This document shows positions 8,327-64,000 of a stretch of DNA of 64,000 nucleotides, one piece after another. Location of the stretch: assembly GCA_000004985.1 (NCBI GenBank), contig GG738885.1, one strand, 5' to 3'. How positions within the stretch are numbered: the first letter of the stretch is position 1; each line of letters starts with the position of its first letter. Below the pieces are notes generated by a model. It ran no database searches, was not told where the DNA came from, and saw nothing but the letters and a program-made list of their open reading frames with translations. The position numbers were made by a program, and so were the translations under genes. The stretch comes from Naegleria gruberi (taxonomy: Eukaryota).

Positions 8327-8697
8327 TTAATCTATGTTAATATATTAAACATTTCAAATTATTATTTTGTAACATTTATTGTAAAACATTCACAAAATCA
8401 TCACATAATGCTACAAGTTGTTAACAATCTATTTTTAAAAAAAAATAAAAAGTTTGGCGCTCTCTTTGTGTCCTTCATCACCAAGATCAAACTTTTTCGG
8501 GATCACAGAGAACAAATCCTTTGATTGCGATTTTACAGCAATCATTTGATAACTAACAACACATCTTATTACCTATATTGATAATATTAAACATATATAA
8601 TAGACGAGAAATATTGTAATTTAATAACAAACATTACCTCAAGAAACGCTAGAGAGAATTTATCACATCCTAATCACACTGATTTAATTGTAAAATT

Positions 8698-10194
8698 ATG
8701 CTTCCATCATCATCAAATAATAATATATTCACTACTCCCCAATTACCTTCTGCATCCTCATCAACACCAAGTGGAAATAATGGCATGATACCGTCCTTTC
8801 AAAGTAATAATAATAATAATACTAGTAGTAGTAGTGTGGATTCACAACAACAACAACATCAATATTCATCACACCTCCAACCCACCTTTTCAAATCATCC
8901 TCCCTATCATTCTATTCATTCAACAGCTAGTAATGGACCTGGACTCTCCCATCATCATCACCATCATGGACATCATCAAGCCTCTCTCCAACCTCCAATC
9001 CCGATCATGAATGGAAATCAAAAGATTCCCAATGCAAATAATAGATTTGTTTTTCCAACACATCCATCCATGTTAATGATGAGTAATCCTTCACAACATC
9101 CCTATATGCCTCCACATCATGGTGGTGTAATGCCATCCTCCTCCACAGCTCAACAACCTCCTTCTCAATACTCTCAAGAAGTAGTATCAAATTCTAGGAC
9201 AATACCCCCAAATGTTAATAATATTCCAATGAATACTACCGTAAAATATAGTAATAGTACAATAATGAATAACAAGTATTCGACAACTATAGCTGATAAC
9301 TCAATCCCAACAACAACACCACAAGAATCCTACATATCAACAACAGTTCCATCAACAGCTTTACCTGTTTGGCAAAATTTAGTGTCTGAAATGGTCAACC
9401 CAACATCTAAAAAACCAAAGAATGAACTCCCACTCGCCAGAATTAAAAAGATTATGAAATCAGATGAAGAAGTAAGAACTAAAACAATGATTAGTGCAGA
9501 GGCACCAGTATTATTTGCCAAAGCATGTGAAATGTTTATTATTGAACTCACACTTCATGCATGGGTTCACACAGAGGAATCAAAAAGAAGAACACTCCAG
9601 AGAAATGATATTGCTGCAGCAATTGGAAAGACAGACATCTTTGACTTTTTGATAGATATTGTTCCGAGAGAGAATGAAAAACCAGCAACCAACTCTAATA
9701 GTCATCAACAATCTTCACACAGTCATCATCAACATGCCTCCAACAGTGGTGGAGGTGGAAAAGGAGTTTCTGCTACTGCTTCCTATCATCACAATCAACA
9801 AACATCACTTCCACAACAACAACAATTAATTGATCCACAAGAAGAAGAACACAATACTGTCGAAGAGGAAATTGATGATGAGGATGGTTTTCAAATTGAT
9901 GATGAAGATGACACTCATTCCGATGATGAATTCGAGCCACCTCAACAAGATATTACTCCAACAAAGAATGAAGATGTCTCCAAGCTGCTTTTGCCATCCC
10001 TAGATCCAAAGAATATGAGCGGAGAAAACTCTATCAAATTTGTACCAGGTCTTGGTGTTATTGGTTCTTCACAGAAACAAGCGAATATCGAACGAGAGAC
10101 AAGTGCTATACTTGTAGATGCTCCCGAGCTGACATCAGAGCCTAGCCAATTCTTAGATGATTCCCAGACATTCCTTCCACTCGATAATCAATAA
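8698..10194 (+). CDS. NFYC: CCAAT-binding factor subunit C (NF-YC/HAP5) histone-fold protein with long Q/N/S/H-rich flanks
   Basis: The histone-fold core [82 protein letters not shown] matches the NF-YC family signature almost residue for residue. An ATG is at 8698. There is a poly-His run and an acidic C-terminus. Confidence 0.9.
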
Positions 10195-10452
10195 ATTATT
10201 GAACAATGGTTGTTACATTTACGTTTTTTCGTTATTTAGAGCAAGCAATAGGGAAAAGAAAATTGCTGCTGAAATTGAGTGAAATGGATATCTTGGTAGC
10301 AAACTTTCGGAGAATGTATAATTTAACTACAACATTTAATATAACTACTACAATGTTTGCGCATCATGGAATTAATACTAACAAACTTCATCAACTGCGC
10401 AATTATAATAACCAAAACCATCATGAATTTTAATATGATTTATTGGTTAAAT

Positions 10453-10710
10453 TTAATCAGTCTTAACTCTGAAAGAGCAACCTTCAGTCAAACGGGCCTT
10501 ACCACCGGTTGGTTGGCACAAGACAGTTGAACAAGTACCACACAAAACGACTCTCTTAGCATGGGAGAAAACAGTGGTGATCTTATAACAACCTGGACAC
10601 TTAACATCCATGAAGAAAGAGTTTGGAGTTGGGATCAATCTCTTCAACTTATGTTGAGTAGCTTGTTGCTTGGCATTAGGATAAAGGAGATCTTCTTCTA
10701 AAAAGCCCAT
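10453..10710 (-). CDS. RPS27: 40S ribosomal protein S27e
   Basis: The 85-aa product contains [49 protein letters not shown], including the C4 zinc knuckle. It is a single exon. Confidence 0.95.
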
Positions 10711-11470
10711 GGTGATATTGTTGATTTTTTTTCGAACAAGAAAAATGAATTTTGGTTGATATGAATTTTACAATGAAAACTCACTAGCTAGGCAAACAAT
10801 AAAAAATTTGTTATCTTACCATCTACTCCTTGTTGTGCTGTTGTGATAACCTTCCAAGAAACTAATTTTGATAAGAAGGAATTGGTAAATTAATAGGAAA
10901 GTACTAAGAGGAATATCTTGGATATCTTCTAAATTATTGTTGAACATACTTGCATAGATTGAATTATAGTATTGCAATGTTTCAATCTAATCATGGAAGA
11001 GGAGAAGCCTCTCCAAGTCTATTCACTCACATCAGGGATTGGCTCTTCTCGCATAATGAACACAATTTGGATCTGTGTGGTGGCTTGGAAACTATTCGTC
11101 AATGTTTATCTCGATCGAAGGCTTTCCAATTTTCGTAGGTTTTTCTCTTCTTTGATCATCTTGATATTTATTGTCTGTGATGGAATTAAACAATTAATAA
11201 TAACGGATTAATTAACTATGGAATGATATGGAATAATTTAATGCCAATGATGAGAATAGGAATAATCTTCGTTATCAAATCTATAAAACAATTACTCAAG
11301 TGGAGGGGAAATCTTTCTATCAACAATTCATCAAACATTGTCCAAACTTGAAATTAACAATTGAGCAACATGAATCAACCGATGAAGAAGGAGAACAAGA
11401 TAACCTCTCTGTTAATTTGAACTATTCAACTCTATTTAATTGTTATTTAAACGTAAAACACTTGTCCAAG

Positions 11471-13576
11471 ATGGACCCAATGATATCTGGTGTGCTTGAT
11501 ATTCTCCAACAGAATCATCATCAAACAGAACCATTTAATGATTCCAATCATCCGATTCATCTTTACATGTTCCTTACAAGGAATGTCATTGAATATTTGG
11601 GAGAATGTTTAATTAATTTCATGGATCTGTACTTTGAATTCATTATTCAATTATTCATTTGTGGAAATGTTAGTAGGGGGGAATTATTGGCCAATCAACT
11701 ACTAGAGGACATGGAACAAATTTCCGAAGAGAGCTTCATCTTGTTGGAAAACATGTTGAATGAAATTTACATATTTGGTATCGATTTTCAGGATGAATTT
11801 ATAACAAGCAAGCAAAAACTGTCCAAATTAATCAATTTAATATTTGGAGTGATTTATTTCAATAAGGGTAACGAGACCAAATACCTGCAATATATGGAAC
11901 GTGTATATTCTGACGAAATAATCGAAAGGAAAATACTGAGAGTGATCTTCTTGAATAGAATAGGAGATTTTGAGAAGGCCTATGAAGTAGTGAAAGGCCT
12001 GATTCATTTCCATGATTTTTACAAATACCTTGATGAATATTGCAAGACCATGATAGGACTGAATAGAACCGAAGAGCTCTTCCAAGACCTAGAACCGATA
12101 GTGAGTGTCAAGATTCAAGAAAGTGATGCTAGAACTTTTGTACAGGAGAATTTTGGAGTAATTTATTGCCTCTACCTTTCTGCCAGCTTATCAGGTAGGC
12201 TTAATGAATTGGAGCATTTGAACAAATATAATGTAGAATATGCAGCTTGCTTTAGTAACAAGCTTAAAATTCTCAAATGCTACGCGAAATTCCAAATAAG
12301 CATGTCATATGGATTTTTAGAGCAAATGAATCGATCCTCATTCGTTCTACTTAATAGTTATTGCTTGTCAATGTTTGATTCCAACAATCAGTTCATGCAG
12401 CAAAGTAAGGAACATACAAAAGTTATTCATGGAGATCAATTGAAACTTTTCGTTAACATGTACTCTACAACAAGTTTCCGATTCCAAGTTGATTTTGATT
12501 TTTCCAAATTGATTTCTAATGAAGCAATTCTAACTGAATTCAAATATTCCTACAATCCAAAAAATCTTTCTCTGCTCTATGACCCAGAGAACAGTCCAGA
12601 GAGGGAAATATATAGCGATAATACCACCAAAGTATTTGCCAATCTTGATAGTGTTTATATTTGTAAACCTGATGATTGTTGGGCAAAAGAAATGCCTACT
12701 GAATATGGATCACAAATCATCTGCTACAAGAACCATTTACTACTCAAGAAGGACTTTTCCATAAAGTCAGTATCATTCAATAATGGAAAGGAAAAGAAGC
12801 TTAAATTATCTAACTGTAGATCACTTGATGTGAAATATGATACAGAGAATTGGATTTCCTTTTTATTTAATAGAGAAGATGAGAATTTAATAGCTCTTGG
12901 ACAGGACTGTGGGCCGAGTATTATAGCTTCTTCCCTGCACGGTGTAGATATTGTGAGTTTTGAGGAAATTGAGGATGGCATTGCATGTTATTTAGCGATT
13001 GAAAGATTACCATCACGAACATCTAATATATGTAAATACTACATCAGTGTTGAAAATGGGCATTTACATCAAAGAAAGGTATTATTTTCAGATGATAATC
13101 ACTTCTCGATTGATTTTTATCACGAGAAGGAGAAAATTATTGGCTATTCCTGCCCTGAACATTTACAATTTTACAATGTCAACACAAATAAGTTGCTCTA
13201 TCAAACGACTGTAAAATCATTATATTTACTTGACCAATTTCAAGACATGATTCTAATTGCAAGCGATGTGGAAAAAAGATTAATGGTATTTAATCTGAGT
13301 AAGGATTCAGTTAAGGTACTTGTAGATTTATCCTACAAGAATAGCCCTTCAATTGTGCTAGGAAGATTTTGTGGATCTCGTTCGTTCATTATTGAAAGAG
13401 AAGACACCACCCTCTATGAGTACTCTTTATCCAATGGTGAATGTCTTGCTGTTTATCCCTTCAAGATTAATTTTACAACATCTGTGGAATATTTCGAGCA
13501 TTCCCCTTCACAAAAGAGATTTCTTCTCGTATTGGAACTTGATTGCATTCATCTCATTGAATTGTCATCAATTTAA
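11471..13576 (+). CDS. hypothetical protein (about 700 aa)
   Basis: The long ORF is open from 11300 (GTG). The first in-frame ATG is at 11471 (MDPMISGV...). No domain is recognised. An upstream spliced exon cannot be excluded. Confidence 0.45.
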   Translation: MDPMISGVLDILQQNHHQTEPFNDSNHPIHLYMFLTRNVIEYLGECLINFMDLYFEFIIQLFICGNVSRGELLANQLLEDMEQISEESFILLENMLNEIYIFGIDFQDEFITSKQKLSKLINLIFGVIYFNKGNETKYLQYMERVYSDEIIERKILRVIFLNRIGDFEKAYEVVKGLIHFHDFYKYLDEYCKTMIGLNRTEELFQDLEPIVSVKIQESDARTFVQENFGVIYCLYLSASLSGRLNELEHLNKYNVEYAACFSNKLKILKCYAKFQISMSYGFLEQMNRSSFVLLNSYCLSMFDSNNQFMQQSKEHTKVIHGDQLKLFVNMYSTTSFRFQVDFDFSKLISNEAILTEFKYSYNPKNLSLLYDPENSPEREIYSDNTTKVFANLDSVYICKPDDCWAKEMPTEYGSQIICYKNHLLLKKDFSIKSVSFNNGKEKKLKLSNCRSLDVKYDTENWISFLFNREDENLIALGQDCGPSIIASSLHGVDIVSFEEIEDGIACYLAIERLPSRTSNICKYYISVENGHLHQRKVLFSDDNHFSIDFYHEKEKIIGYSCPEHLQFYNVNTNKLLYQTTVKSLYLLDQFQDMILIASDVEKRLMVFNLSKDSVKVLVDLSYKNSPSIVLGRFCGSRSFIIEREDTTLYEYSLSNGECLAVYPFKINFTTSVEYFEHSPSQKRFLLVLELDCIHLIELSSI

Positions 13577-22556: not shown

Positions 22557-23751
22557 ATGATGATGACGATGATCAACAAAATAGATTTTGTTTCATACAC
22601 TTATACTGATAAATTTGTCAGATTAGAGATTGATGGTAAATCTTCCTTTGCTTTTAGTAATATTATCGGAGGAGATAAGAGTATATTCTTTGTTTGTGCA
22701 TCTTCTAATAGACTGGTCGAGATCAATGCTAAAGAATTTATTAGGCATAAAACACACAATACAGTAAAAACACCTATTACTTTGATTGATCACGATAAAG
22801 ATAATAGAATAGAAATGACAAAGATTGAATACCCAAATTTGATGGAGGACTCTATTGTTTATAATATTCAATATGTTATGGGAAAGGATTATGTGTATTT
22901 AGTGGACAAAAAAGATGGGAATGTTGGATCTTTTTCTCTCACTACAGGTCAATTATTAGTTAACAATTATTCAGATCATAGAGGAATCAGAAAGTTTATC
23001 GCTGGACCTCTTTCTTCTTGTCATGTCGTGCTGACCTATGACGGAACTATTTTTGAGAATGGAAAGGAGGTTGTTTTTTTTTCTACTGATCCACAACCGA
23101 ATATTTTGAGAGCTGCATGTTGTGGAAGAGGATCAATTCTGGCTTCTTCTCATGATCTTTATGCAAGAGGAGGCGATAATGTATTCTTTGTGTTTTCAGA
23201 AAAGTTTGGAGACTACAATCAAAATGTTTCATCAACACAGTTTGTGCATATTGCTAAATTTGAACACGAAATTAGAGATATCCAATGTGGATACTTTCAT
23301 ACTGTGGTTCTTTTGCAGAATAATGAATTATTTGCATGTGGCTACAATTGTTTGAATCAAGCCACTTGGGATAATTCCAGTGGTGAGATTAAACAATTTA
23401 CCAAAATTCAATACTCATTCGGTTATATTGAGAGATTTGGATGTTCCTCAAGAGGTACTTGGGTTGTTAGTGGTGAGTATTTTGTTCTTCTTTTGCTAAT
23501 CTTTTTAAGGTGATGAGGTTACAATGGTAGGAGAGGTTGTTGAACATTTTACAACTTTAGTTTCAAATACAGTTGTTCCAAAAATCATAAAGTTTCATCT
23601 GGAGGGCTTTGCTTGTGATACATTGACGAATTGTGGATGGCACTACGTAATGTACAAGCAAAACTCAAAGAAGAGTAACTATTTCAAAGAAAGACTTCAT
23701 ACCATGGTTGACTCGGAACGAATTTCTGACCTTGATTTCATTTACCAATAA
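22557..23751 (+). CDS. RCC1-like repeat protein, 2 exons
   Basis: Exon 1 is 22557..23472 and exon 2 is 23510..23751 (donor GTGAGT at 23473, acceptor AG at 23508-09, phase-consistent). RCC1-like blades are IQCGYFHTVVLLQNNELFACGYNCLNQ and AACCGRGSILASSHDLYARGGDN. Confidence 0.5.
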
Positions 23752-25240: not shown

Positions 25241-26889
25241 TTATAAAATGATAACTTCTTGTGGTGGAGGCGTTAAAGGCTTTGGATTATTTACAATTAT
25301 TGAAATATCTGTGTAAAAATCTGTAACTAATCTACGCTTCATTCTAGCAAATGTCCAAGCTAGCCTAGTATTCTCTTTCTTAGTGAGATAAATGCTACGA
25401 GATTTAGAGCTAGTAAATAATTGATAAGAAAAGGAAGGGTTTTGTAGAAAAGAGTTGGGCAAGAGAATTCTATGAGGTACAGAAATGTCTCCCTCAATCT
25501 TTTCACAATAACTTGAACCAGTGATGTAAAAGTGTCCCTTTTTGGTTCCAAATACAGAACATGCTCTTCCTGCATGAATTGAAGTAATGAGCTCGTTAAC
25601 AGTGTTAATTCTTGTAGGCATATTCCTATCGGAATAATCTCCTAATCCTAATTGGCCATGCTTGTTTCTTCCTGAACAATAAAGCTGATTATTCCTAGTA
25701 AGGAAAAGAGTATGATTCCATCCACAAGCAATCATTGAAATGGATTGGTTGGAAAAGTGCTTCTTATCGATCAGAGTAATATCTGACCTCGATTTAAAGT
25801 CTTGTAACCCAAGTTGACCATAAGAATTCCTTCCACATGCAAAAACTTGTCCTAATTTTGTCAGAAATACAGAATGCAACTCGCCACAAGATGCAAATAT
25901 AACATAATCATTACTCTCCACCAATTCATCAAAGAATGTCAGTCTACTTGGTATTTTTATATCAACATCTCCATACATTTCTCCACAGAAATAGACCTTG
26001 TTGGTTCTTGTTATCATGATGGTATGATACGATCCACAAGCAAGTAGTTTGACCTTCTCATCAATTCTCGTCTTGGAAAGTGTGTTTACTCTACAATAGT
26101 CCTCTCCCAAATAATTTTCATCATTGACACATCCAATCTGTCCATAAATATTATATCCTAATTAGCCAGTTGCATGAATTTTGTAATAATATTAGACCAA
26201 AACCAATGTTCCACCAACAACTTACCCACTCCATACACCTGTCCATCTTTTGTCAATATCATACTATTTCTTTTACCACAAGCAATGTCTTTAATTTCTA
26301 AATCTTCCAAACAAAATTTCAAAATGTGTTTGTATACAGTAGAGTGTACAGTGCTACTAATATTCAATTGAGAATCAGCATTCTTTCCAATTGCAAATAT
26401 CCTATTCTTACTTGTTAAAATTAGAGTATGCCAAGATCCAGATTCAATCTTTTCAATATTTTCATCAATATCCAATACAGTAGACTTGATACTTTTCACT
26501 TGATGATCAATATTATTCATGCACAAGACTCCACCTTTACAGAATGCATTCATCCTATTGTTTTTGTGAGGGATCTTTACAAAGTGATCAATTTGCTCTG
26601 TTTCTTCTTGTTGTTGCAACTGGGAATCAACAATTAAAACATGTTCTTCAACAAATTCATCACCATACACAAATAATTCATTGGTTCTTAAAGGCTTTCT
26701 CTGTAAAATCTTGATCAACTTGTCATCATCAAGCACAGTTTCGGAACAATTAATTTCCTCATTAAATAATAGCAAGGAACCACTACTAGATGAATGTTGA
26801 TGATTACTACTACTAGTAGTATTATGATTATTATTAATTAATAGAAAGGGAACAACAGTCGTATCATCATCATAAATAATTTGCGTCAT
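25241..26889 (-). CDS. RCC1-repeat protein, 2 exons
   Basis: Exon 1 is 26226..26889 and exon 2 is 25241..26157 (donor GTAAGT, acceptor ...AATTAG, phase-consistent). The junction gives ...GQVYGVG|GYNIYGQIG. RCC1 blades are ACGWNHTLFLTRNNQLYCSGRNKHGQLGLGDYSDR and ASCGELHSVFLTKLGQVFACGRNSYGQLGLQD. Confidence 0.75.
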
Positions 26890-33282: not shown

Positions 33283-35032
33283 TTAAGCATTCTTATGGGT
33301 GGGAGAGAGGAAAAGTTGAGGATATTCTCTGTCTGTTCTTGATTTTTTCAGGAGATTAAATTGTTCCTTTGATATTCTCCTCTCCATTAATAGACCATTC
33401 TGTGAAACTGCCTCCAAAAGGAAATCAAAATCTAACTGGAAATTATATGGAATTATTGGAAATATGCCTGCATCTCTCTTTAAAATATTAAAGAGAAATT
33501 CTCTGTCAAAGTTGTAATTGTAAAAGCGATAATGTAAAATGGATGGCATTTCATCTACCAATTCTAACACCAAAGAATTATCATTTTTCAACCTTTTAGA
33601 AATGTTTCTGTAAGAATTAGGGCTAATTTTTACAACTTGTTTGACAAAATCTCTGTCATCCTTTAATTCATAAGAGGCATACTCAAATAAATCAAACCGA
33701 TCTCCTGCATCTTTGGGAGGATTTCTTAATGCTTCCAAAATGGCTGTTCTATCAGAATGTAAATGAGGTAAATGAATTAATGCTGCTCCATTCTGTCTTA
33801 TTGAATCCATGGCAATATCCAAATCATTAAGTATATCCTTGTGAGCAAAGTGGATGGCATATCCACAATTGGATATTGCAATTCTTACAATCTCCTTATC
33901 AGCTCTCAATTCTTCATTTGACAAATTCAAGCAATTCTCCCCTCTTTTTCAGGGCTAAAACTGCCAGTTCTCTATCACTTCTCAATTCTTCTGATAAAAG
34001 TTCGTACGTTATCGGATTGAGATTAATCAACTCCCTCATAAAATCCTTATCATTGCATAGATTATCAGGTAAATTATTGAATGGAAGAGTGCCCAGGGTT
34101 ACCAAACTTTTTTTGAGAAATTCCTTGTCTCCTTGTAACTCCTTACTTAAACAATTAATGAAATATGGATTTGATTCAAGAGAAGCAATTAAAATCTCTC
34201 TGTCATTATAAAATTGCTTTACCATTTGTGAATCAATTGAGTAGCCAGTCTTACAAGCTGCTAACAGCAATTCCCTATCTTGCTTAAATTTATCAGTACT
34301 GATTTGATTCAACAACGAACCATTGATCTTGATTGCTTCATAAACTACATCTCTATCACGTTGCAAATTTGTTGGTAAATAAGGTAGAACATGAGGAAAC
34401 GCCTTCACTATTTCTATGGCTAGATCCTTATCTTTAACATCTCTGGCCTCTCTAGGATGCCTCAGAAGATACTCTTTTACAAACTCTTTATCACGAAGAA
34501 AGGCAAGAGGAATTGATCCTCCACTCCTCACAGATAACAATCCAATTTCTCTATCGCTGTCAAACATGCTTAATGAGTCCAATATTTCACCATTTGCCTG
34601 CACTAACATCTTAACCTTCTCTCTATCCTTAATAATACTTGCTGGCAAATGATCTGCAACTTTGGTATCATACTTGACCATCTCCAAGACAATTTCAAAA
34701 TCTTTGAGAAACTCCGAGCTTGCCCAGTCAAATACAGGACCAACCTTAGCAGCATGTAAGACCAATTCTCGATCCTTCTTCAATGAATCATTAAGGAATT
34801 CAGGAAAGATTGTATGTCCCTCCTCAAAGGCTCTCATCAAGACTTGCCTATCATCGTAGAATTCTATTGGGAATTTGTTTGATTCAGATGCAAAGAATTC
34901 ATCAATATGCTCCAGATACTTTTTCATACTCTTAGCTTGAAGTAGGAAGCGAGCTTGTAACTTGTCCAGTAAACAATTACTCTTCATACCACTCCAATCT
35001 TCATCCAATTGTAATACAACATTTTCCGACAT
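33283..35032 (-). CDS. DUF4116-repeat protein (apparent 1-nt frameshift at a G-run near 33935-33940)
   Basis: ORFs 33914..35032 and 33283..33930 both carry reiterated ~35-aa units of the DUF4116 type (DRELVLHAAKVGP...FLKD, ELRSDRELAVLALKKRGELL, ELRADKEIVRIAISNCGYAIHFAHKD). Removing one G from gaggggag joins the frames (…ALKKRENCLNLSNEELRADKEIV…). Confidence 0.55.
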
Positions 35033-37966: not shown

Positions 37967-40900
37967 TCAATAAAAAGCACAGACAAGAGCAACCAACATC
38001 AAGATCAAACATTGTAAACCACTTCTTGAATTGAGTGAGTGAGCTGATGATACAGCACGTGCATTGTCACTCGATACAATAAAATTGGAAATTACAAAAC
38101 CTTCAGCTTGATCCAATTCATCTTGTAATGATCTTTTTGAAACTGAAGCCAAACCAATATTTGTCTGAACGAAACAAGATCTTGCTTGTGCACTTGATGA
38201 TGGGAAGAGAGAAGGTTCAAGGGCAAATGAAAAGGTGGAAACATAATTAGAACTTGATGGATAAATAATTGTGGAAACTTTGGAATTGGCAATATTATTG
38301 GAAATTATTGAATGTTGGACATCCATTGAGGAAGAATTGAATTTGGAGCATCCAAATTGACCAAGTGATGGATTATAAATCAATGAGAATATTGTCTCTT
38401 TGAAACAGCAGAAATAGGCATCAGTGACAGCTAGACGTGAGCTAGAACTTGTAAAGGTTGATGATTGTACATTGGAAAACACTCTGTCACCTGTTTTGAA
38501 GGTTGTTTTTGGAGACCAATCATTTCCTGCCAAGTACATTGATCCCTGTATTGTGATATTCTTTTCAGTTGGTGGGGTAACAATGGTATATTCGATTTGG
38601 ATTGGGAAATATATAGTTGTAATGTCTGTAACACCCTTTCTAGTGAATGTTCCAGTGAAATAGGTAAGAGCTCTATAATCATTGGATGTAGTAAGGGATT
38701 CGAATTGAATTTGATAGAAATTCGAATCACCATTTTGGAATAAAAAAGTAGATTCAGTAACTTGCATGGAATAAGCAGCTGTAGTATTGAAGAAAGTAAA
38801 CGAATTCAATGTCAAATTAGTTGCTTTCAATACAACTGAAATAGAGAGCTTTCCACTAGATGTAGTTGTTACCTCTTGTGGATAAACATTAGTTGCATAG
38901 CCATAGATTGGATTATACTGAGAGAATGATCCAATTACTGTTCCAGATTGAATGTAAACTAATTGATAAGTTTTGAATTCGTATGATCTACAGAATCCAC
39001 CATTTTGAGAACCATCTCTATCAAGGTAATTCATGGAAATAGGAAGCTTAAGAACCAACATATTTGAAGAGTATTGCTTAATCACGAGAGGATTTGAGAT
39101 TAAATCATCAATTGTGAATTCTGGAGTTGAGTAAATGGCTTGACATTTAGATTTACCAATCAAATTCAAGGCGATACTTTGATTTCCATTCACTGAACAA
39201 TTCTTGAACTTGGATTCACCAACAAAGAATAAATGTTCGTAAGGAACAGCATCAAGTTTGTACGAAACTGTAAATGAAATGGCCTTTCCAACAATGCTCG
39301 ATGAAATAATTGGACTTGGAGCACCAAATGCTTGAACATTAGTCCACAAACATTCAGAACCTACTACTGGAATACTACAATTCAATCCAGTAAATCCAGC
39401 ATTGCATGTACAATTATTACTTCCAGAGCAGTAACCTCTTCCCAAAGCAAAGGAGCAATTATTCAATGAAACATCATCACATGAGAAGGAGGAGCAATTG
39501 GTTGCTGATTTCCATCCAGAGCTGCAGTTACACTTGTTTGGAGCAAAACAATCACCATGTCCAGAGCAAACTGTTTGATTTGTACTGATCTTACCATCAC
39601 AAATAGGGAGATTACAATTGACACCACCATATCCAGTACTGCACACACAAGTGTATGGAGCTACACAAGATCCATGTCCAGAGCAAACTGTTGGATCTGT
39701 ACTGAGTTTACCATTACAAACTGGGATATTACATTGAACACCTGCATAACCGTTCAAACACCAACATGCACCAGGAGCAATACAAGCTCCATGTCCAGAA
39801 CAAACAGCACTTGCATTATTACTGAGCTTTCCATAACAAATAGGAAGACTACAATTGATACCACCATATCCAGTACTGCACACACAAGTGTATGGAGCGA
39901 CACAAGATCCATGTCCAGAGCAAACTGTTGGATCTGTACTGAGTTTACCATCGCAAACAGGCAGATTACATTCAGAACCTGCATAACCATTCTGGCAATA
40001 ACATGAATCTGGAGCCAGACAAATACCCCTTCCAGAACAAACACTTGCATTATTACTGAGTTTACCATAACAAATTGGAGTTTCACATTTAGAACCAGCA
40101 TATCCAGCATTACATGAACAAGTATCTGCTGCAACACATTGTCCATTTCCATTACAAACACTTGAATCATTTTGGAATTTACCATAACAGGAAGCTATTT
40201 CACATGAAGAACCATGGTAACCTGGTTTGCATGTGCAAATATTATTGGAAAGACAAGCACCTCTGGATGGTCCACCACAAGCATTACTCCCACTTTGACC
40301 AAAACAGGTAAAAGCAGAAGCACATTCACTTCCATAATATCCATCCTGACATTGACACTTATTATACGAAACACATGTACCCTTCGAACTGCATGCAGCA
40401 CTTCCAACCTTCAAGTAGCACATTGGCTTATCACAATTAGCACCACCATACATTACTGCACTTTCGGCCAATGGGAATACCAATTGTTGCCAACAAATTT
40501 TCCCCACTGAATCATAAACCATAAAATTTCTATCTGGTCTAACCACCAATCTGAAAGGACTAACACCTCCACTGCAACCAGAAGAGAATGTAAGATAATT
40601 CGAATTTCCATTATTTAGATTAAATGCTCCATTACTATTATCCAATTTAATGTAATAATTCGAATAACCTGGATAGTAACCTTGTGCCCAATCTGCATAT
40701 CCAGCACGTTGATACAGAACGAAATTACCATCATTTTGAAGAATAAGATATTCATCATTTTGTGGGTTGTAAATTTGTACTAATTTTGGGATGGATCCAT
40801 TGATGGAGGAGTGCATGTAATTTCCAGACGAAAGGTCAAGACATTCGCAGGTATCTTGAGCTTTGCAGAGACCGTTTCCACCACATACTTGCATGTCTGT

Positions 40901-40993
40901 TGGAAGCTTACCGAAACATGTGTGGGCGTGAGATTGGTGGATCAAGCAAAGCAAGAGTAGGACGAATGAGATTCGAACAACTATTTGCATCAT
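37967..40993 (-). CDS. secreted/membrane-anchored EGF-like (tenascin/laminin-type) repeat protein, about 1008 aa
   Basis: The signal peptide is MMQIVVRISFVLLLLCLIHQSHAH. About 12 Cys-rich repeats of the form CxCxxGYxGxxCxxPxCxGKLSxxxxVCSGHGxC are present. A hydrophobic C-terminus (GLQCLILMLVALVCAFY) indicates a TM or GPI signal. Confidence 0.8.
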   Translation of the reverse strand: MMQIVVRISFVLLLLCLIHQSHAHTCFGKLPTDMQVCGGNGLCKAQDTCECLDLSSGNYMHSSINGSIPKLVQIYNPQNDEYLILQNDGNFVLYQRAGYADWAQGYYPGYSNYYIKLDNSNGAFNLNNGNSNYLTFSSGCSGGVSPFRLVVRPDRNFMVYDSVGKICWQQLVFPLAESAVMYGGANCDKPMCYLKVGSAACSSKGTCVSYNKCQCQDGYYGSECASAFTCFGQSGSNACGGPSRGACLSNNICTCKPGYHGSSCEIASCYGKFQNDSSVCNGNGQCVAADTCSCNAGYAGSKCETPICYGKLSNNASVCSGRGICLAPDSCYCQNGYAGSECNLPVCDGKLSTDPTVCSGHGSCVAPYTCVCSTGYGGINCSLPICYGKLSNNASAVCSGHGACIAPGACWCLNGYAGVQCNIPVCNGKLSTDPTVCSGHGSCVAPYTCVCSTGYGGVNCNLPICDGKISTNQTVCSGHGDCFAPNKCNCSSGWKSATNCSSFSCDDVSLNNCSFALGRGYCSGSNNCTCNAGFTGLNCSIPVVGSECLWTNVQAFGAPSPIISSSIVGKAISFTVSYKLDAVPYEHLFFVGESKFKNCSVNGNQSIALNLIGKSKCQAIYSTPEFTIDDLISNPLVIKQYSSNMLVLKLPISMNYLDRDGSQNGGFCRSYEFKTYQLVYIQSGTVIGSFSQYNPIYGYATNVYPQEVTTTSSGKLSISVVLKATNLTLNSFTFFNTTAAYSMQVTESTFLFQNGDSNFYQIQFESLTTSNDYRALTYFTGTFTRKGVTDITTIYFPIQIEYTIVTPPTEKNITIQGSMYLAGNDWSPKTTFKTGDRVFSNVQSSTFTSSSSRLAVTDAYFCCFKETIFSLIYNPSLGQFGCSKFNSSSMDVQHSIISNNIANSKVSTIIYPSSSNYVSTFSFALEPSLFPSSSAQARSCFVQTNIGLASVSKRSLQDELDQAEGFVISNFIVSSDNARAVSSAHSLNSRSGLQCLILMLVALVCAFY
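39510..39990 (-). repeat. near-perfect internal tandem duplication (2-EGF unit, about 234 nt) inside the EGF-repeat gene
   Basis: PVCDGKLSTDPTVCSGHGSCVAPYTCVCSTGYGGINCSLPICYGKLSNNASAVCSGHGACIAPGACWCLNGYAGVQCNI is followed by PVCNGKLSTDPTVCSGHGSCVAPYTCVCSTGYGGVNCNLPICDGK. Confidence 0.75.
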
Positions 40994-42641: not shown

Positions 42642-44741
42642 ATGCGGCCACAAGTTACTGATGACAATTACTTTTCAGATGTTTACCTTGTAACGAGAGA
42701 AGGTGATCAGGATCAACATAATGATGAAATAATTCACAATTTATTTAAAAGTTTATTAAAATTGATGAAGAAAATATCTCACTCCCGATCTCTGCATCTC
42801 ACCAATGAAAATGTACAATATTTAAGAATGGCAGTTAGAGTAAAGAGAAGAAGTGCTTCGGAATTGTCTAAACTGGAATCAAAATATGAAAATGATCGGT
42901 TATTTGCTTGGTTGGCTGTTCGATCGTTTGGCACAAATGCATTGAAAACTATTCGAAATGAAAAGTTTAAATGTGATAGAGAAATTATAAAGGCAGGATT
43001 GGAAAGTGATGGAAGTATTCTATTTGCATGTACAATTCCAAGAGAAGAATTGAGAGAGGATGAGGAATTGATTTTGAAGGGATTGGAAACTTGTCCCAGA
43101 GTTTTGGAGTTGGCAAATGACAGAATTAGAAATGATCGTTCTGTTGTTGAATCTGTATTGAAAAGAGATGGAATGCAATTGAAATATTGTGGAGAATCTA
43201 TCAAAAATGATAGAAATATTATTGGAATAGCTCTCAAACAAAATATTGAATCGTGTAAATTTATTCCAGCAGGAATAGTTGATGAACAATTGGTATTTAG
43301 AGTAGTGTTAATTAATGGATTGTTATTGGTCCACTTTCCTGAATTCAATTCGAATAGAAAAGTTGTAATTGCTGCTGTGAAACAAAATGGGTTGGCATTG
43401 GAATTTGCATCCAATGAATTGAGATCGGATGAGGAAATTGTCAAATTGGCAATGGAAACACAGAAAGATGCTCTTTTGTTTGCTAGCCCAACTCTATTGA
43501 TCAGGAAAGAGTTTATGGATAATCTTGTGAGTAAAATGATAGATTGGAGAGATATTTCGTTTAAAATTTCTGAAATAATTAAGAAATATTATTCGGATTA
43601 TGAGGAGTTTATGTTAAGCAGATATGAGAGAGGATATGAATACCCAACTTATTTATCTAATAGTTTAAGTATCGATAATTGGATTCGAATATTGGCAAAG
43701 AATATAAATTTATTCCGGCCTTTCTTGGAATACTATTCAAAATCTAAGGAATTAGTTAAAGATGTGAGCTTTCTATTGAAACTAGCACAAAAAATGAAAA
43801 TTGATGCAGATTTCAAAGAATCCTATTCTGATTATTTGGAATTGCAGAAAGCAATGATTCTTAAACAGCCATACCTGTTATATCACTTTGATCCTAGTTT
43901 GAAATCTGACTTACCACTCATGTTTAGGATACTTAGAGAAACTTCTCTTTATATTGACCTCAAATATTTTGACAAGTCATTATTGGAAAACAGAGAATTT
44001 TTATTAGAAGTACTTAAAAAATATTCCTATAATTGGGATATCTTAACCACATTTGATGATGAGCTGTACGAATGTGGAGTGGTCGATTCTTCATACTGTT
44101 TTGGAAAATATTTGGAAAAATATTGTAATAATAAGGAATATTTAATAAGGGCCATCAATAGGAATTCTAATTTATTTGAACTTCTTTCTCATAAGTTAGA
44201 TGAAGAGGATCGTATGCAACTAAAAAACAAGTTAAAAGAGGTCAGAGCTACGAATCATTTGACAGATAGAATTGAGAAACTTTCTGATGAAGAAAAGAAA
44301 GATAAAGAGCTAATTATTGGCCACCTCAAAATATCACCCATGTCCTTCCCATTCATAGATCCATCTTTAAAAAACGATATAGATGTGGTAATGACAGCCG
44401 TAACCAAACATGGAGGTGTTCTAAAGTTTCTCTCTCCAGAAATGAAAAAGAATAAGGAAGTTGTAATGGCTAGCAAACATCAAGGTTTTGCCTATGCAGA
44501 TAAAACACTTCAGAGAGATAGACAAGCCATTCTTAATGCGGCTCAACATTATGGAGGAATTTTAGAGCTATTAGATAAGGATTTGAGAAATGATGAGGAA
44601 ATTGTTCTTCAATGCATCAAGACAACGCCCATGTCATTAGAATTTGCAAGTGAAACTCTGAGAAATAATCCAGAAATTGTGAGAGTAGCTTACAATTTAG
44701 ATCCAAAAGTTGTGGAATTTACTGATCTTGTTTCTTTTTAA
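42642..44741 (+). CDS. DUF4116-repeat protein
   Basis: 699 aa with an ATG start. The units are reiterated (DREIIKAGLESDGSILFAC, NDRSVVESVLKRDGMQLKYCGESIKNDRNIIGIALKQN, SNRKVVIAAVKQNGLALEFASNELRSDEEIVKLAMETQKDALLFAS). It is a paralogous family to 33283..35032. Confidence 0.6.
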   Translation: MRPQVTDDNYFSDVYLVTREGDQDQHNDEIIHNLFKSLLKLMKKISHSRSLHLTNENVQYLRMAVRVKRRSASELSKLESKYENDRLFAWLAVRSFGTNALKTIRNEKFKCDREIIKAGLESDGSILFACTIPREELREDEELILKGLETCPRVLELANDRIRNDRSVVESVLKRDGMQLKYCGESIKNDRNIIGIALKQNIESCKFIPAGIVDEQLVFRVVLINGLLLVHFPEFNSNRKVVIAAVKQNGLALEFASNELRSDEEIVKLAMETQKDALLFASPTLLIRKEFMDNLVSKMIDWRDISFKISEIIKKYYSDYEEFMLSRYERGYEYPTYLSNSLSIDNWIRILAKNINLFRPFLEYYSKSKELVKDVSFLLKLAQKMKIDADFKESYSDYLELQKAMILKQPYLLYHFDPSLKSDLPLMFRILRETSLYIDLKYFDKSLLENREFLLEVLKKYSYNWDILTTFDDELYECGVVDSSYCFGKYLEKYCNNKEYLIRAINRNSNLFELLSHKLDEEDRMQLKNKLKEVRATNHLTDRIEKLSDEEKKDKELIIGHLKISPMSFPFIDPSLKNDIDVVMTAVTKHGGVLKFLSPEMKKNKEVVMASKHQGFAYADKTLQRDRQAILNAAQHYGGILELLDKDLRNDEEIVLQCIKTTPMSLEFASETLRNNPEIVRVAYNLDPKVVEFTDLVSF

Positions 44742-59047: not shown

Positions 59048-60739
59048 ATGATTTCGTCTGTGCCTCCTCCACAACCTTCTGCAACGGTTGCTGTTGAGGA
59101 TCTCCATCATCAGCCTAGGACCAAATTTACTAACCAGGGCAATAATGAATTGCCTCATCATCATCATCAGCATGATGGTATGGTGGATGATGAAGAGGAG
59201 AGTGTTATGATTCGTTATCATGATCGTCAGAATAATTTTGGAATTTCTGGTAAATTAATTCATGATCGAGATGATGATCAGCAGGGTGTTGGTGGTTCCG
59301 ATCATATGAAGAACAATATCGAATTTCAAAATGTTGAATTATCTTCAAATAATAATGGAAAAGTAATAATGGAGAGGAAGGAGAAGGAAATATTGAGTGA
59401 TCATGGAAATAGAATTGATAGTCAACAACAGGAAGTGGTAAATAATTCATCATTGGAACCAAAAGACAAATATCACATGATTACAATAATATTCTTCATT
59501 CAGGGAATGGGTGAATTATTTCCATGGAATGCAATGTTATCAGCTGTGGATTACTTGTTGGCTCTTTATTCTGAACAAAAAGTCATGTTGTGGATGACAT
59601 CTGTATATAGTTTGATTACTTTAGTGACATTGTTGCTATTGATTAAGTTTGGAACTCATATTAGGTACAGATATAGGATTTATATACCTTATGTAATATT
59701 GATTGGATTATTGATTGCTGTTCCATTACTTTATGTGATTATTGGAAATAGATTGGCTGAATTTATTATTCTAATGGCGATTGTCTCAGTAATGGCTGTT
59801 TGCACAGGATCTATTCAGTCTTCAGTTTATGGAATTTCCAGCAAGTTACCTCATCACTATATGAATACGGTAGTGTCTGGAAGTGCTTTTGCTGGTCTAT
59901 TTATTAGCTTATTGAGGATTTTAACAAAGGTTACCATAGAGAGTGGGTATGAGGAAGTTCCTATTGAGATATTATCAACCTCAACAATTATTTACTTTTC
60001 GTTTTGTGCAGCTCTCAACGTGGTTTGCATTGCTACCTTTATCATTTTGGAAAGGTCACCATTTGTTCAATATTATTTGAATCAGAAAGTGGAAGATCAA
60101 GCTGATGCTAATAGAGATCATGCTGAAATTACATCAATTAAGAACATTTTGACAAATATTTTCAAGAATGTTTGGATTAATTGCTTGACTATATTCTTGA
60201 ACTTTTTCGTATCATTAACAATTTTCCCAGGCCTTTCAAGTGCCATTCCATCCATTTATGTTGGAACCTCTATGGAAACATGGTTGCCAATTTGGTCAAA
60301 TTTGACATTTCAAATCTATGATTTTCTTGGAAGAATTGCATATTATTGGATTGATATATTACCATCTGGAAAATTCATCCCGATTGAGTCACTTCCACCA
60401 ACAACTTCCAAATACGAATTATTTAAAAGAAAATTGAGAGTTTCTACTCAAGAGATAATACTTCTCGTTTTGGTTTTGATGAGATTTATCTTGATACCTT
60501 TATTTATATTTTGCTTGAATCCAATGCTTTTTAAACATGATGCAATTCCATTGATATTCATGTTTGTCATGTCATTGTCAAATGGTTATTTCAACAGCAT
60601 ACTCATGTCGAGTGCTCCTAAGAAATTTGTAAATTTACATGAGAAGGAAATCACAGCAACAACAATGACATTCTTTTTATTGTTGGGAATTTCTGTGGGC
60701 TCAAATTTTGGTCTAATTTTAGGATTAATACTGCTTTAA
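59048..60739 (+). CDS. equilibrative nucleoside transporter (ENT/SLC29)-like membrane protein
   Basis: The ENT-type first TM is IIFFIQGMGELFPWNAMLSAVDY. About 11 hydrophobic segments are present. The N-terminal extension is hydrophilic and H/D-rich. Confidence 0.55.
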   Translation: MISSVPPPQPSATVAVEDLHHQPRTKFTNQGNNELPHHHHQHDGMVDDEEESVMIRYHDRQNNFGISGKLIHDRDDDQQGVGGSDHMKNNIEFQNVELSSNNNGKVIMERKEKEILSDHGNRIDSQQQEVVNNSSLEPKDKYHMITIIFFIQGMGELFPWNAMLSAVDYLLALYSEQKVMLWMTSVYSLITLVTLLLLIKFGTHIRYRYRIYIPYVILIGLLIAVPLLYVIIGNRLAEFIILMAIVSVMAVCTGSIQSSVYGISSKLPHHYMNTVVSGSAFAGLFISLLRILTKVTIESGYEEVPIEILSTSTIIYFSFCAALNVVCIATFIILERSPFVQYYLNQKVEDQADANRDHAEITSIKNILTNIFKNVWINCLTIFLNFFVSLTIFPGLSSAIPSIYVGTSMETWLPIWSNLTFQIYDFLGRIAYYWIDILPSGKFIPIESLPPTTSKYELFKRKLRVSTQEIILLVLVLMRFILIPLFIFCLNPMLFKHDAIPLIFMFVMSLSNGYFNSILMSSAPKKFVNLHEKEITATTMTFFLLLGISVGSNFGLILGLILL

Positions 60740-60865: not shown

Positions 60866-60939
60866 GCGCCGTTAGATCAGTTGGTTAGATCGTCAGCTTT
60901 ACACGCTGAAGGTCAAGGGTTCGACTCCCTTACGGCGTA
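60866..60939 (+). tRNA. tRNA-Val (anticodon TAC)
   Basis: GCGCCGT-TA-GATC-AGTTGGTTA-GATC-G-TCAGC-TTTACAC-GCTGA-AGGTC-AAGGG-TTCGACT-CCCTT-ACGGCGT-A. The anticodon and T stems are perfect. Positions 1:72 form a G:U pair. A T5 run starts 3 nt downstream. Confidence 0.85.
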
Positions 60940-60964: not shown

Positions 60965-63900
60965 TTATTTGTGATTACAAAAATCTTGTGGTTTGGGTCT
61001 TTTACTTGGATCCCGTCTAACCATTTCTGTAATTTGTGTTATCAACTCGGCAGAATATTTGTTGCCAGAACCAGTATTCATTTGATTTTTCAAAATCTCT
61101 TCCACTTGTTCTTCATTCTTTGTCAGGAAATAGTGACTAATGGAGGTGCTTACATCTTTTGAAATAAGTTGATAAAGAGTCACTCCCAATGAATAAATAT
61201 CAGTCTCTGGTCCATAATTCGATCCAAGACCTAATTCAGGAGAGCAATACAATGGCGTTCCAGCGTATGATTTGTTTGAAGTGCTATTGTCTCTGGCCAA
61301 GCCAAAATCTGCCAAAACAATTTGAATGTTAGTATTGGAAATCTCCTTAATAAAAATATTGGACGGCTTAATATCTCTGTGAATTAGTTTCTTTTCATTG
61401 TGAATAAAATCGAGGGCCCTGCCCATTTGTTCAATGATTTGTCTCAAAATTTCCTCCGTACAAAACTCAGGGTTTTTAAGTAAATAGCTCAAATCTCCCT
61501 TCTCATAGTAATCCATTTCAATGAATAGAAGTTCTTCCTGATCAATAAAAAGATCATTCACCTTGACAATATTTGGATGATTCATATTCAATAATTGGAG
61601 ACCTTCCTTCATAAATAAACTCAATTCAGAGTATGAGTTAAATCTCATAGCTTTAAGAACTCTAGGATTATTGTTTTGATCTAAACATTTAAATACTGAT
61701 CCAAATCCTCCAGCTCCAATCTTTTGCAGATTAGAATATCTTGAAAGCGGATTAAAAGCATCTGTTATACTTGAGCTTGATCCGGATTTAACAGATCTAA
61801 CATTAGTTGAAGTTTTAAAGAAATACGAAACCTCGTCAGGATAATCTGAGAAAGTTCCAGTTGTGGTCGAAATATCCAATGTGGAAAGGTTTGAATTTTT
61901 CAATTCTACATCTGAAACTGTAGCAATGGAACTATTAGATTGTTTCTTCTTTTTCTTACATAGCACCACCACAGCAATGACAATTATTATAGCAATTAGT
62001 ACCAAAATCAATAGAATTGAGAGAATGGGCACGAGGGTTGCTATTAAAATGATTCTTGTTGTTGATTCCTCCACAGATGTATTTGAATTGATTTCACACT
62101 GAGTTCCATTCCAATTCTTTTGACAGGAGCAAGTATTTGGAGAAATACATTGTCCTTGATTGGCTCCTCCACAAGCTCCATCTTCAGTTTTTCCAAAACA
62201 AATTGGAATGCAAATTGTTGCATCAATTGAAGATACAGAAAAATTATCTGAGCAGTATGGACTCATTAAGGTAACTCGTTTTCTCAACTCAATCATGGCA
62301 AAAACACCAGTTTTCGAATTGAATGAAAGAGAGATTGGAGTTCCAATGCTAGTATTTGTTGGATACATTGTTGGGGAAGATAAAATATTTGATCCATTAC
62401 CTGCTATAGTAAAGAGTGTTCCATTGGTTGATATTTTCCTAACTCGACTCAATTCTATAAAAAAGACCTCTCCTATTGTATTGACAAAGATGGATTTGGG
62501 ACTTGTCAGCAATGTAGATGATGCAGCATTGACATTTTCTCCAGAATATCCATTACTTCCTTTCAGTCCAGCAATGGTTGAAATAGTTCCCTCTTTTGAG
62601 AATTTTCTAATTCGGTAGATATCTGAAAAGTAGAGTTCTGATTTTTGTTCATGGAAGAATAACCCAGCTGGTTTGTAAATCCCAACAAGAGATCGATCAA
62701 TTCCATCTGAAGTATCATCAGTTCCATTTCCTGAATAAACCTGAAAGTTATTTTCGAAACCGACATAAAGATAAGTTGTTGTGCTTTGAACAGCATCCAT
62801 AAAGTAAATCTTTCCACTTGAATCCACATGAATGAAATCTTTGACGATTGTGAATGAACTGAATAGTGTTTTCACATTTCCATCTTTCGAATATTTCAAC
62901 AATCGTGAATTGTCAATTACATAGAGATTATCATTATGTGAAAAAACAGCTGTCGGTGTCTGCATCTTGAATGAAGAGATGGATCCTTCAGCCATATTAA
63001 TTCCTCCAAGGAAAGGACCTGCATAGGTGTTGAATGTTTTTTGAGCTACATTTCCTTTGATAATTCTATTGTAAGTAATGTCAGTAACATAAAAATCACC
63101 TGTGGAAGCCAATGAAACTCCCACAATTATCTTCTTTCCTTTTGGATCGTTAACGATTCTGTCAGGAAGTCTCCTTGTTCCAAATCCTGCTATTGTTGTG
63201 AAAATAGTCGAATTGGTCGAGTATTTACGAATGACACTATTCAAAGTATCTCCTATTATATAATCTCCATTATTATCCAAACAAAATGAGTGTGGATATC
63301 TCATTCTCGCAAGTGTTCCTGATTGATAATCTCCTAAAAACCCCTTAGTTAATGTTCCAATAAGCTTTTGTTGTTTTATGCTTATATCTAGCACATAGTG
63401 TCCAAATGCATTGACATAATACTTTTCATTGGCATTGGTATAAACAATTGAGGTTGGGGTATGGATAGTGCTAAGAGTTTGAGAGTTTCCGTATACTGAT
63501 TGTGTTGAAATGTCAAAATCTCTAATTAAATAGTTTTTCGTATCAGCCACAGCCAATATTGTCCCTTTCAGAAGAGCAAATCTTGGAAATTTCAACATGA
63601 TATCAGATAAAACTAAAGTGCTAGGTGGTTCTTTGCCTCCGAATTGAGTTCCTAAAATGGTGGAACTGGTTGAATTGAAGACTTTTCGAATTCTATGATT
63701 GAAAGTATCTGAAACAATTAAAATATCTCCAGAAAAACTCAAACCTTGTGGATTATTCAATTGTAAATTCAGTAAATCACTTCCTTCACCATTATATCCA
63801 GGAATTCCACTTCCCATGAATCTATAAATTCGTCCACTTGTTGAATCAACTCTCAAAATCCGATGATTATGTGTATCTGAAATGAATAAATCTTGTGTGG

Positions 63901-64000
63901 AGGGTTGAATTGCAATTTCGTATGGGTAATTGAGTGAAACATCGGTGGCCAGTAATCCATCAATATTATTGTCGAAACCTGCAACTCCTTTTCCTGCCAC
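60965..64000 (-). CDS. receptor-like protein kinase: NHL-repeat ectodomain + EGF-like module + single TM + Ser/Thr(-like) kinase domain; 5' end beyond window
   Basis: The ORF is open to the window edge. NHL-type units carry NHRILRVD/FNHRIRKVF. The EGF-like module is CGGANQGQCISPNTCSCQKNWNGTQCE. The TM is IILIATLVPILSILLILVLIAIIIVIAVVVL followed by KKKKK. The kinase motifs are IGAGGFGSVFKC, VLKAMRF, HRDIKPSNIFI, DFGLARD, GTPLYCSPE. Confidence 0.75.
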   Translation of the reverse strand: MAGKGVAGFDNNIDGLLATDVSLNYPYEIAIQPSTQDLFISDTHNHRILRVDSTSGRIYRFMGSGIPGYNGEGSDLLNLQLNNPQGLSFSGDILIVSDTFNHRIRKVFNSTSSTILGTQFGGKEPPSTLVLSDIMLKFPRFALLKGTILAVADTKNYLIRDFDISTQSVYGNSQTLSTIHTPTSIVYTNANEKYYVNAFGHYVLDISIKQQKLIGTLTKGFLGDYQSGTLARMRYPHSFCLDNNGDYIIGDTLNSVIRKYSTNSTIFTTIAGFGTRRLPDRIVNDPKGKKIIVGVSLASTGDFYVTDITYNRIIKGNVAQKTFNTYAGPFLGGINMAEGSISSFKMQTPTAVFSHNDNLYVIDNSRLLKYSKDGNVKTLFSSFTIVKDFIHVDSSGKIYFMDAVQSTTTYLYVGFENNFQVYSGNGTDDTSDGIDRSLVGIYKPAGLFFHEQKSELYFSDIYRIRKFSKEGTISTIAGLKGSNGYSGENVNAASSTLLTSPKSIFVNTIGEVFFIELSRVRKISTNGTLFTIAGNGSNILSSPTMYPTNTSIGTPISLSFNSKTGVFAMIELRKRVTLMSPYCSDNFSVSSIDATICIPICFGKTEDGACGGANQGQCISPNTCSCQKNWNGTQCEINSNTSVEESTTRIILIATLVPILSILLILVLIAIIIVIAVVVLCKKKKKQSNSSIATVSDVELKNSNLSTLDISTTTGTFSDYPDEVSYFFKTSTNVRSVKSGSSSSITDAFNPLSRYSNLQKIGAGGFGSVFKCLDQNNNPRVLKAMRFNSYSELSLFMKEGLQLLNMNHPNIVKVNDLFIDQEELLFIEMDYYEKGDLSYLLKNPEFCTEEILRQIIEQMGRALDFIHNEKKLIHRDIKPSNIFIKEISNTNIQIVLADFGLARDNSTSNKSYAGTPLYCSPELGLGSNYGPETDIYSLGVTLYQLISKDVSTSISHYFLTKNEEQVEEILKNQMNTGSGNKYSAELITQITEMVRRDPSKRPKPQDFCNHK

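Follow-up and report, generated by a model that had tools for sequence, protein, structure and literature searches.

PknD of Mycobacterium tuberculosis, a receptor Ser/Thr kinase with an NHL-propeller sensor (PDB 1RWL; Good et al. 2004, as cited in PMC6107167), offers a first point of comparison for the protein described here. This protein is encoded at the end of a 64,000-nucleotide stretch of Naegleria gruberi DNA (contig GG738885.1 of GenBank assembly GCA_000004985.1), which is called the window hereafter. The gene in question, NAEGRDRAFT_70624, corresponds to a minus-strand open reading frame (ORF) at 60965..64000 that combines NHL repeats, an EGF-like module, a transmembrane (TM) helix, and a protein kinase domain. 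PknD resembles it in that a Hanks-type Ser/Thr kinase is joined by one TM segment to an extracytoplasmic NHL propeller thought to control the kinase. PknD is bacterial, however, and has the kinase at its N terminus and one six-bladed propeller at its C terminus, whereas the Naegleria protein is predicted to run from a signal peptide through about three propellers and an EGF-like module to a C-terminal kinase, and we detected no specific sequence relationship between the two. An earlier note on this DNA had called NHL ectodomains on receptor kinases unusual; that statement needs softening, since PknD has one and the Naegleria gene belongs to a multigene family, but the topology of PknD is indeed the opposite one.

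Plant CRINKLY4/ACR4 (bioRxiv 10.1101/2020.08.10.245050) likewise has a type I topology, with an N-terminal propeller, a small disulfide-rich module, one TM segment, and a cytoplasmic Ser/Thr kinase. It differs in having one seven-bladed propeller, a TNFR-like Cys-rich domain, and a kinase of the receptor-like kinase (RLK)/Pelle type, where the Naegleria protein has NHL blades, an EGF-like module, and a kinase that scores best against NEK, STE20, and ULK kinases. One relative of the Naegleria protein, P0275, with an RCC1 propeller followed by EGF, TM, and kinase, converges on the CRINKLY4 layout. Teneurins and teneurin-like proteins (PDB 9ifo, 9g2f, 6fb3) give the best matches to the ectodomain in both structure and sequence and share with it a teneurin-type EGF placed between the membrane and an NHL propeller; they are, however, type II proteins with a YD shell, a toxin-like C terminus, and no kinase, and neither YD/Rhs nor Tox-GHH domains gave a Pfam match in the ORF or in the full Naegleria protein. 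LRP2, LRP4, and LRP6, among the top structural matches found with Foldseek, are similar in carrying tandem six-bladed propellers, each followed by EGF, in a type I ectodomain, and differ in their YWTD blades, low sequence identity (10-13%), lack of a kinase, and signaling by way of co-receptors. The transmembrane kinases (TMKs) of Entamoeba histolytica have ectodomains of CXXC/CXC repeats without an NHL propeller and belong to an organism of an unrelated supergroup. Like the Naegleria family, they nevertheless form an expanded, lineage-specific set of single-pass receptor kinases in a phagotrophic amoeba, and their ectodomains are variable and Cys-rich (e.g., PATMK; Boettner et al. 2008, as cited in PMC4053784). 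Judged by its sequence, the Naegleria protein is thus receptor-kinase-like but no member of the PknD, CRINKLY4, teneurin, or LRP families.

The ORF comprises 1011 codons and a TAA stop codon (60965..60967, minus strand), and it runs without interruption to the last base of the window. At the base composition of the window (about 33% G+C along its whole length, with stops making up 7.4% of random codons), the chance of a stop-free run of 1011 codons is about 1e-34. Its translation matches residues 425-1435 of a 1435-residue N. gruberi predicted protein (XP_002674300.1, EFC41556.1, UniProt D2VNU7, NAEGRDRAFT_70624) with 100% identity, so that window residue n is residue n+424 of the full protein; residue numbers below are those of the window ORF unless the full protein is named. 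The apparent GTG start of the ORF is the internal Val425 (window residue 1). The window edge thus cuts the gene short, as the earlier note had supposed, and leaves beyond it 424 N-terminal residues that carry a signal-peptide-like N terminus and about seven further blades. The ORF belongs to a genuine N. gruberi gene, of which it makes up three-quarters at the 3′ end and which is already deposited in GenBank and UniProt as an uncharacterized predicted protein, its sequence public since 2010. Pfam models, hydropathy, structure prediction, and kinase motifs bear out the domain order proposed from the letters alone, namely NHL propeller, EGF-like module, single TM, and complete kinase, and neither a stop nor an intron separates ectodomain from kinase inside the window, where both lie in one continuous frame.

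The kinase domain lies at the extreme C terminus (aa 755-1011; 60968..61738, minus strand) and spans positions 1-261 of the 263 in the Pfam Pkinase profile (PF00069; E=9.5e-51, 173.1 bits against a cutoff of 31.7). Two AlphaFold2 models were computed, one of the whole window ORF (mean predicted local distance difference test score, pLDDT, of 71) and one of the ectodomain alone (mean pLDDT 79), and the kinase is predicted with pLDDT above 90. The characteristic elements are present in order: GAGGFGSV at 762-769, VLK with Lys783 in strand β3, Glu799 in helix αC, HRDIKPSN at 874-881 (nt 61358-61381), DFG at 898-900, GTPLYCSPE at 914-922, DIYSLG at 934-939, and Arg1001 of subdomain XI. All three kinase motifs that had been quoted beforehand (HRDIKPSN, DFG, and SPE) are thus located in this domain; SPE for APE is ordinary variation among Ser/Thr kinases and occurs in the NEK1 alignment as well. 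Across 25 family kinases the catalytic residues are conserved, and in a 7-sequence alignment they are invariant. The Lys of HRDxK(xxN) and the GTPxY P+1 loop are the signatures of Ser/Thr specificity (Hanks & Hunter). The catalytic loop HRDIKPSN differs from the HRDLAARN or HRDLRAAN of tyrosine kinases. At the level of sequence, then, this is an intact, catalytically competent Ser/Thr kinase of the RD type, and for an RD kinase with Ser/Thr in the activation segment, control by activation-loop phosphorylation is expected.

Placement of the kinase within a single group is precluded by the small margins between scores. A search of the PDB with the single sequence returned NEK1, STK24, ULK3, NEK2, and MARK, all at 82-93 bits, and a search with the family profile returned NEK1 (143.0 bits), STK24 (142.3 bits), NEK2 (140 bits), and ULK1 (132 bits), so that NEK1 leads STK24 by 0.7 bits and the domain cannot be assigned to NEK or to any other single group. 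These highest-scoring solved kinases, of the NEK, STE20 (MST3/STK24), and ULK groups, share HRDxKxxN and GTPxYxSPE with the Naegleria domain but are cytoplasmic, without ectodomain or TM segment. Foldseek matches of the whole window ORF are mostly generic kinases, including those of PAK1, Nek2, ULK1, and CaMKII. The best 60 PDB kinase matches are all eukaryotic, and among them we find no TKL, TK, TGF-beta receptor, or plant RLK/Pelle kinase except one EGFR chain (9p9u_A), whose 123 bits are summed over two matched stretches. A plant S-receptor-like kinase is 31% identical to the kinase domain, at 90 bits.

The ectodomain spans about 1000 residues in the full protein and carries 14 NxS/T sequons. 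Its repeats had been read as NHL blades, and they do score as NHL rather than as another propeller type: Pfam NHL (PF01436; E=1.8e-14, 53.3 bits against a cutoff of 20) and TEN_NHL (PF25021; E=1.5e-15, 57.5 bits against 27.1) both match the window part above cutoff, rising to 123.7 and 112.7 bits, respectively, in the full 1435-residue protein, and in the PDB the ectodomain sequence matches NHL proteins only, namely SOQ1, a teneurin-like protein, NHLRC2, teneurins, and TRIM71. The blade motifs quoted beforehand lie at aa 44-52 (HNHRILRVD; nt 63845-63871) and aa 100-108 (FNHRIRKVF; nt 63677-63703). In the AlphaFold2 models the window part contains 11 four-stranded blades between aa 26 and 589, and a Foldseek search with the ectodomain model returned as top matches a teneurin-like protein, the propeller-EGF tandems of LRP2, LRP4, and LRP6, NHLRC2, and SOQ1. 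A blade hidden Markov model (HMM), built from the clean NHL repeats of another N. gruberi protein (P0039), finds 14 blades in the full protein, spaced by 55-60 residues in the N-terminal half and degenerate nearer the membrane.

Blades B1-B5 (aa 1-275; 63176..64000, minus strand) are identified by Pfam NHL and TEN_NHL, by blade-HMM matches in this region at residues 436-477, 492-533, 575-584, and 644-683 of the full protein, and by AlphaFold2, which models aa 26-272 as five four-stranded blades (pLDDT mostly 75-95). They would be the last five blades of a middle propeller, whose first blade, together with an N-terminal propeller, lies outside the window. The stretch that follows (aa 276-290; 63131..63175, minus strand) is the sole part of the ectodomain before the EGF-like module with pLDDT below 50 in the ectodomain model, and it may be the junction of two propellers. 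Blades B6-B11 form a predicted membrane-proximal propeller (aa 291-582; 62255..63130, minus strand), modeled by AlphaFold2 as six four-stranded blades (aa 292-589) that are sequence-degenerate but of NHL type, with weak blade-HMM matches; its best TEN_NHL stretch is aa 487-549, and teneurin NHL regions in the PDB match at aa 487-550. With 11 blades in the window and about seven upstream, the full protein has approximately 18, which probably correspond to three six-bladed propellers.

Between propellers and membrane lies a Cys-rich, EGF-like module (aa 583-637; 62090..62254, minus strand), whose six-Cys core at aa 601-635 (nt 62096-62200) has the pattern C-x8-C-x7-C-x5-C-x-C-x8-C, the canonical EGF spacing. 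The module aligns with an EGF_2 module that passes the Pfam threshold in the N. fowleri relative P0241 (31.3 bits; cutoff 22), and the aligned module is above threshold also in the relatives P0248 (25.8 bits) and P0254 (30.8 bits), the Pfam models passed in relatives being EGF_2 and EGF_Teneurin. The proposal of an EGF-like module therefore stands on Cys spacing and on homology to relatives that score above the Pfam cutoff, which this copy itself does not reach, and the term EGF-like is acceptable on these grounds, although no other element of the observation is as weakly supported.

The only internal hydrophobic segment of the ORF is a single TM helix of 32 residues, IILIATLVPILSILLILVLIAIIIVIAVVVLC (aa 650-681; 61958..62053, minus strand), with a Kyte-Doolittle maximum of 3.95 and an AlphaFold2 helix over aa 646-681. 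It is directly followed on its cytoplasmic side by KKKKK (nt 61943-61957), a poly-Lys stop-transfer that fits the positive-inside rule, and then by a juxtamembrane segment (aa 682-754; 61739..61957, minus strand) that is rich in Ser/Thr (26 of 73 residues, 36%) and predicted to be disordered (pLDDT below 50). At the other end, residues 5-29 of the full protein form a hydrophobic, signal-like N terminus, as judged by hydropathy. Because of this N terminus, the single TM helix, the lysines that follow it, and the sequons of the ectodomain, the protein is predicted to be a type I single-pass protein with its propellers outside and its kinase inside.

To delimit the family, we ran an exhaustive HMMER search with the EGF-to-kinase region against 1.84 billion representatives, followed by local scoring per domain. 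Family kinase domains score 120-314 bits, compared with about 100 bits for generic kinases, and some 25-40 relatives share the layout of ectodomain, TM segment, and C-terminal kinase. In every full-length member (kinase at least 120 bits), a TM segment lies about 100 residues upstream of a kinase that ends the protein, and most of these members also have a hydrophobic N terminus; the kinase-only models and fragments lack the upstream TM or ectodomain part. At least 11-13 members are from N. gruberi (NAEGRDRAFT_70624, 72652, 71976, 58454, 70916, 49308, 59090, 68566, 50593, and 70317, and XP_002678153, plus the kinase-only models NAEGRDRAFT_31119 and XP_002677979), four from N. fowleri (FDP41_002843, FDP41_013523, FDP41_011216, and FDP41_008832), six from N. 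lovaniensis (C9374_ loci), and one from Willaertia magna (ABK040_001103). The suggestion that the protein is lineage-specific holds up in this search: all species-assigned members come from Naegleria or Willaertia, four species in total, and the family is so far confined to vahlkampfiid heteroloboseans.

Ectodomains vary far more than kinases within the family. NAEGRDRAFT_70624 is 46-57% identical to its relatives in the kinase, compared with 24-41% in the ectodomain propellers, and its juxtamembrane segment is unconserved, being alignable, weakly, to the paralogue P0252 alone. Most relatives have NHL blades, in some cases interleaved with long teneurin-type EGF arrays in proteins of up to 2807 residues, and P0275 (from an ENA contig, 1399 aa) has an RCC1-type propeller (331 bits) instead of NHL, followed by EGF, TM, and the same type of kinase. 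In a rough neighbor-joining tree of low resolution, NAEGRDRAFT_70624 lies nearest to three paralogues from N. gruberi, suggesting that the family expanded at the species level.

Two observations concern individual gene models of the family. NAEGRDRAFT_31119 and XP_002677979 (283-290 aa) contain only the family kinase domain; they are probably 5′-truncated models of receptor genes, because the near-identical ENA protein P0127 has an ectodomain, EGF, and TM upstream. In the N. fowleri assembly ERZ2098899 of ENA, the homologue FDP41_002843 appears at 7358-11818 as five consecutive short ORFs and a 653-residue ORF on one strand, evidently the product of a prokaryotic gene finder; introns or sequencing errors may account for the breaks.

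We consider it likely that NAEGRDRAFT_70624 encodes a type I receptor Ser/Thr kinase that is activated by clustering and whose layout was assembled independently of other receptor kinases. The propellers, with the distal and well-conserved ones exposed, would bind an extracellular ligand or surface, and binding would alter the oligomeric state, clustering, or orientation of the receptor. The cytoplasmic kinases could then trans-phosphorylate the Ser/Thr-containing activation segment, DFGLARDNSTSNKSYAGTPLYCSPE, together with Ser/Thr residues of the juxtamembrane segment, and so pass the signal on. The layout was probably assembled within the heterolobosean lineage, because the kinase is not specifically close to plant RLK/Pelle, animal receptor tyrosine kinase (RTK), TGF-beta receptor, or bacterial kinases. 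A multigene family in which the kinase is conserved while the ectodomains diverge quickly or are exchanged would fit a diversified repertoire of environmental, prey, or cell-contact sensors in a bacterivorous amoeba.

Several points weigh against this explanation or parts of it. Activation by clustering is proposed by analogy to other single-pass receptor kinases, and the independent origin is argued from similarity scores and a rough neighbor-joining tree. Pfam EGF models score below threshold in this protein (EGF_2 11.4, EGF_Teneurin 10.3, and EGF_DL_JAG 12.1 bits, with cutoffs of 22-27), and the EGF-like region is of low confidence in the AlphaFold2 models. The count of three propellers derives from counting blades and from one low-confidence linker, and the N terminus with the first seven blades lies outside the window and comes from the public gene model alone. 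Every family member is known from predicted sequence alone, and the literature we surveyed, with subscription papers partly covered (genome papers and work on the Naegleria kinome, on NHL and kinase combinations, and on receptor kinases), does not describe the family.

The ligand is where another explanation bears most directly. The protein could be an adhesion or phagocytosis receptor whose NHL/EGF ectodomain binds prey, substratum, or other cells while the kinase, instead of serving to sense a soluble cue, only tunes local cytoskeletal responses, a possibility that we regard as real though rather unlikely. Among solved proteins, teneurins and teneurin-like proteins have the NHL regions closest to the ectodomain, its EGF likewise is of the teneurin kind, and some relatives carry the long EGF arrays typical of adhesion proteins, but the structural matches also include LRP6, a receptor for soluble ligands, and BT4663, a bacterial glycan sensor. 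Naegleria is a phagotrophic amoeba, and analogous proteins act in phagocytosis (Entamoeba PATMK, in the TMK work cited in PMC4053784) and in contacts (teneurins). This alternative differs from a ligand-sensing receptor kinase in the kind of ligand alone, however, and the same clustering-activated kinase mechanism would apply to both.

The NHL-kinase combination might instead have been acquired horizontally, as a bacterial NHL sensor kinase like PknD, which we judge very improbable. Many laterally acquired bacterial genes have been reported for N. gruberi (PMC4053784), and the best matches of the NHL region outside Naegleria are bacterial, at about 26% identity; such top matches are expected in any case, because the database is dominated by bacterial metagenomes. 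In the kinase search, bacterial Ser/Thr kinases (up to 148 bits) ranked right after the Naegleria family, but their scores per domain, 102 and 89 bits, are about the same as those of a plant kinase (90 bits) and human NEK1 (93 bits). Moreover, PknD has the opposite domain order and topology, and the PknD sensor is absent from the PDB matches of the ectodomain at E<0.01. A bacterial origin of the kinase by itself was also considered and is rejected, the high whole-protein scores being an artifact of two tandem kinase domains (102 + 89 bits). Many Ser/Thr kinases of Chloroflexi and Planctomycetes, about 550-750 residues long, have two such tandem domains, and their summed scores can mimic close kinship.

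That the ORF is an artifact of gene modeling or assembly (two fused neighboring genes), or a decaying paralogue or pseudokinase, is highly improbable. In its favor are the automatic origin of the public annotation ("predicted protein"), the kinase-only models of some N. gruberi relatives (283-290 aa), and the degenerate sequence of the membrane-proximal blades. Against it, a single uninterrupted frame crosses ectodomain, TM, and kinase, the layout is shared by over 20 paralogues and orthologues from four species, and all catalytic residues are intact and conserved.

On the 3′ side of the receptor kinase gene, a tRNA-Val gene (anticodon TAC; 60866-60939, plus strand) lies only 26 bp past the kinase stop codon, in the 225-bp gap between convergent genes, so that the 3′ end of the kinase mRNA must fall within or next to it. 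The convergent neighbor (59048-60739, plus strand) encodes an equilibrative nucleoside transporter (PF01733, E=1.9e-43) with an unusual N-terminal extension of about 240 residues rich in His, Asp, and Gln. We found no second kinase or tandem paralogue among the 20 ORFs of at least 220 aa scanned between 22.5 and 60.7 kb. The other genes of the window are ordinary for Naegleria and include Nop56/58-like, serpin, RCC1, DUF4116, GDSL lipase, leucine-rich repeat, RWP-RK, and EGF-repeat proteins.

The ORF at 37967-40993 (minus strand) encodes a protein of 1008 residues with little in it besides teneurin-type EGF repeats (EGF_Teneurin 112 bits, EGF_TEN 101 bits). The membrane-proximal module of the NHL kinases is of the same EGF type, but no kinase ORF adjoins this gene. 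Two adjacent ORFs at 25241-26110 and 26158-26889 (minus strand) both match models of RCC1-like propellers and seem to form a single gene, interrupted by a short intron or a frameshift, and another RCC1-repeat ORF lies nearby on the opposite strand (22557-23513, plus strand). Proteins with DUF4116 repeats, an uncharacterized repeat family, are encoded twice within 10 kb, at 42642-44741 (plus strand; 272 bits) and 33914-35032 (minus strand; 158 bits).

Returning to the receptor kinase, its meaning for the biology of Naegleria is assessed here from prediction. Several origins are assumed for receptor kinases, with animal RTKs, TGF-beta receptors, plant RLKs, Entamoeba TMKs, and bacterial PASTA and NHL kinases as examples, and a heterolobosean family of NHL receptors would add an independent case in Discoba, a deep branch poorly studied for signaling. 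A broader proposal, to which we give about an even chance, is that Naegleria and Willaertia independently invented receptor kinases by fusing an orphan NEK/STE20-like kinase to NHL/EGF (sometimes RCC1 or poly-EGF) ectodomains and then expanded them into a fast-diversifying set of sensors, following a logic like that of plant RLKs and Entamoeba TMKs. For annotation, our results suggest that some "kinase-only" gene models of N. gruberi are truncated receptor genes. N. fowleri is a lethal pathogen with four members of the family, and surface-exposed, lineage-specific receptors with a druggable kinase would be candidates for host or prey recognition and for targeting by inhibitors. Such a repertoire may be used for recognizing prey, partners, or, in N. 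fowleri, host surfaces.

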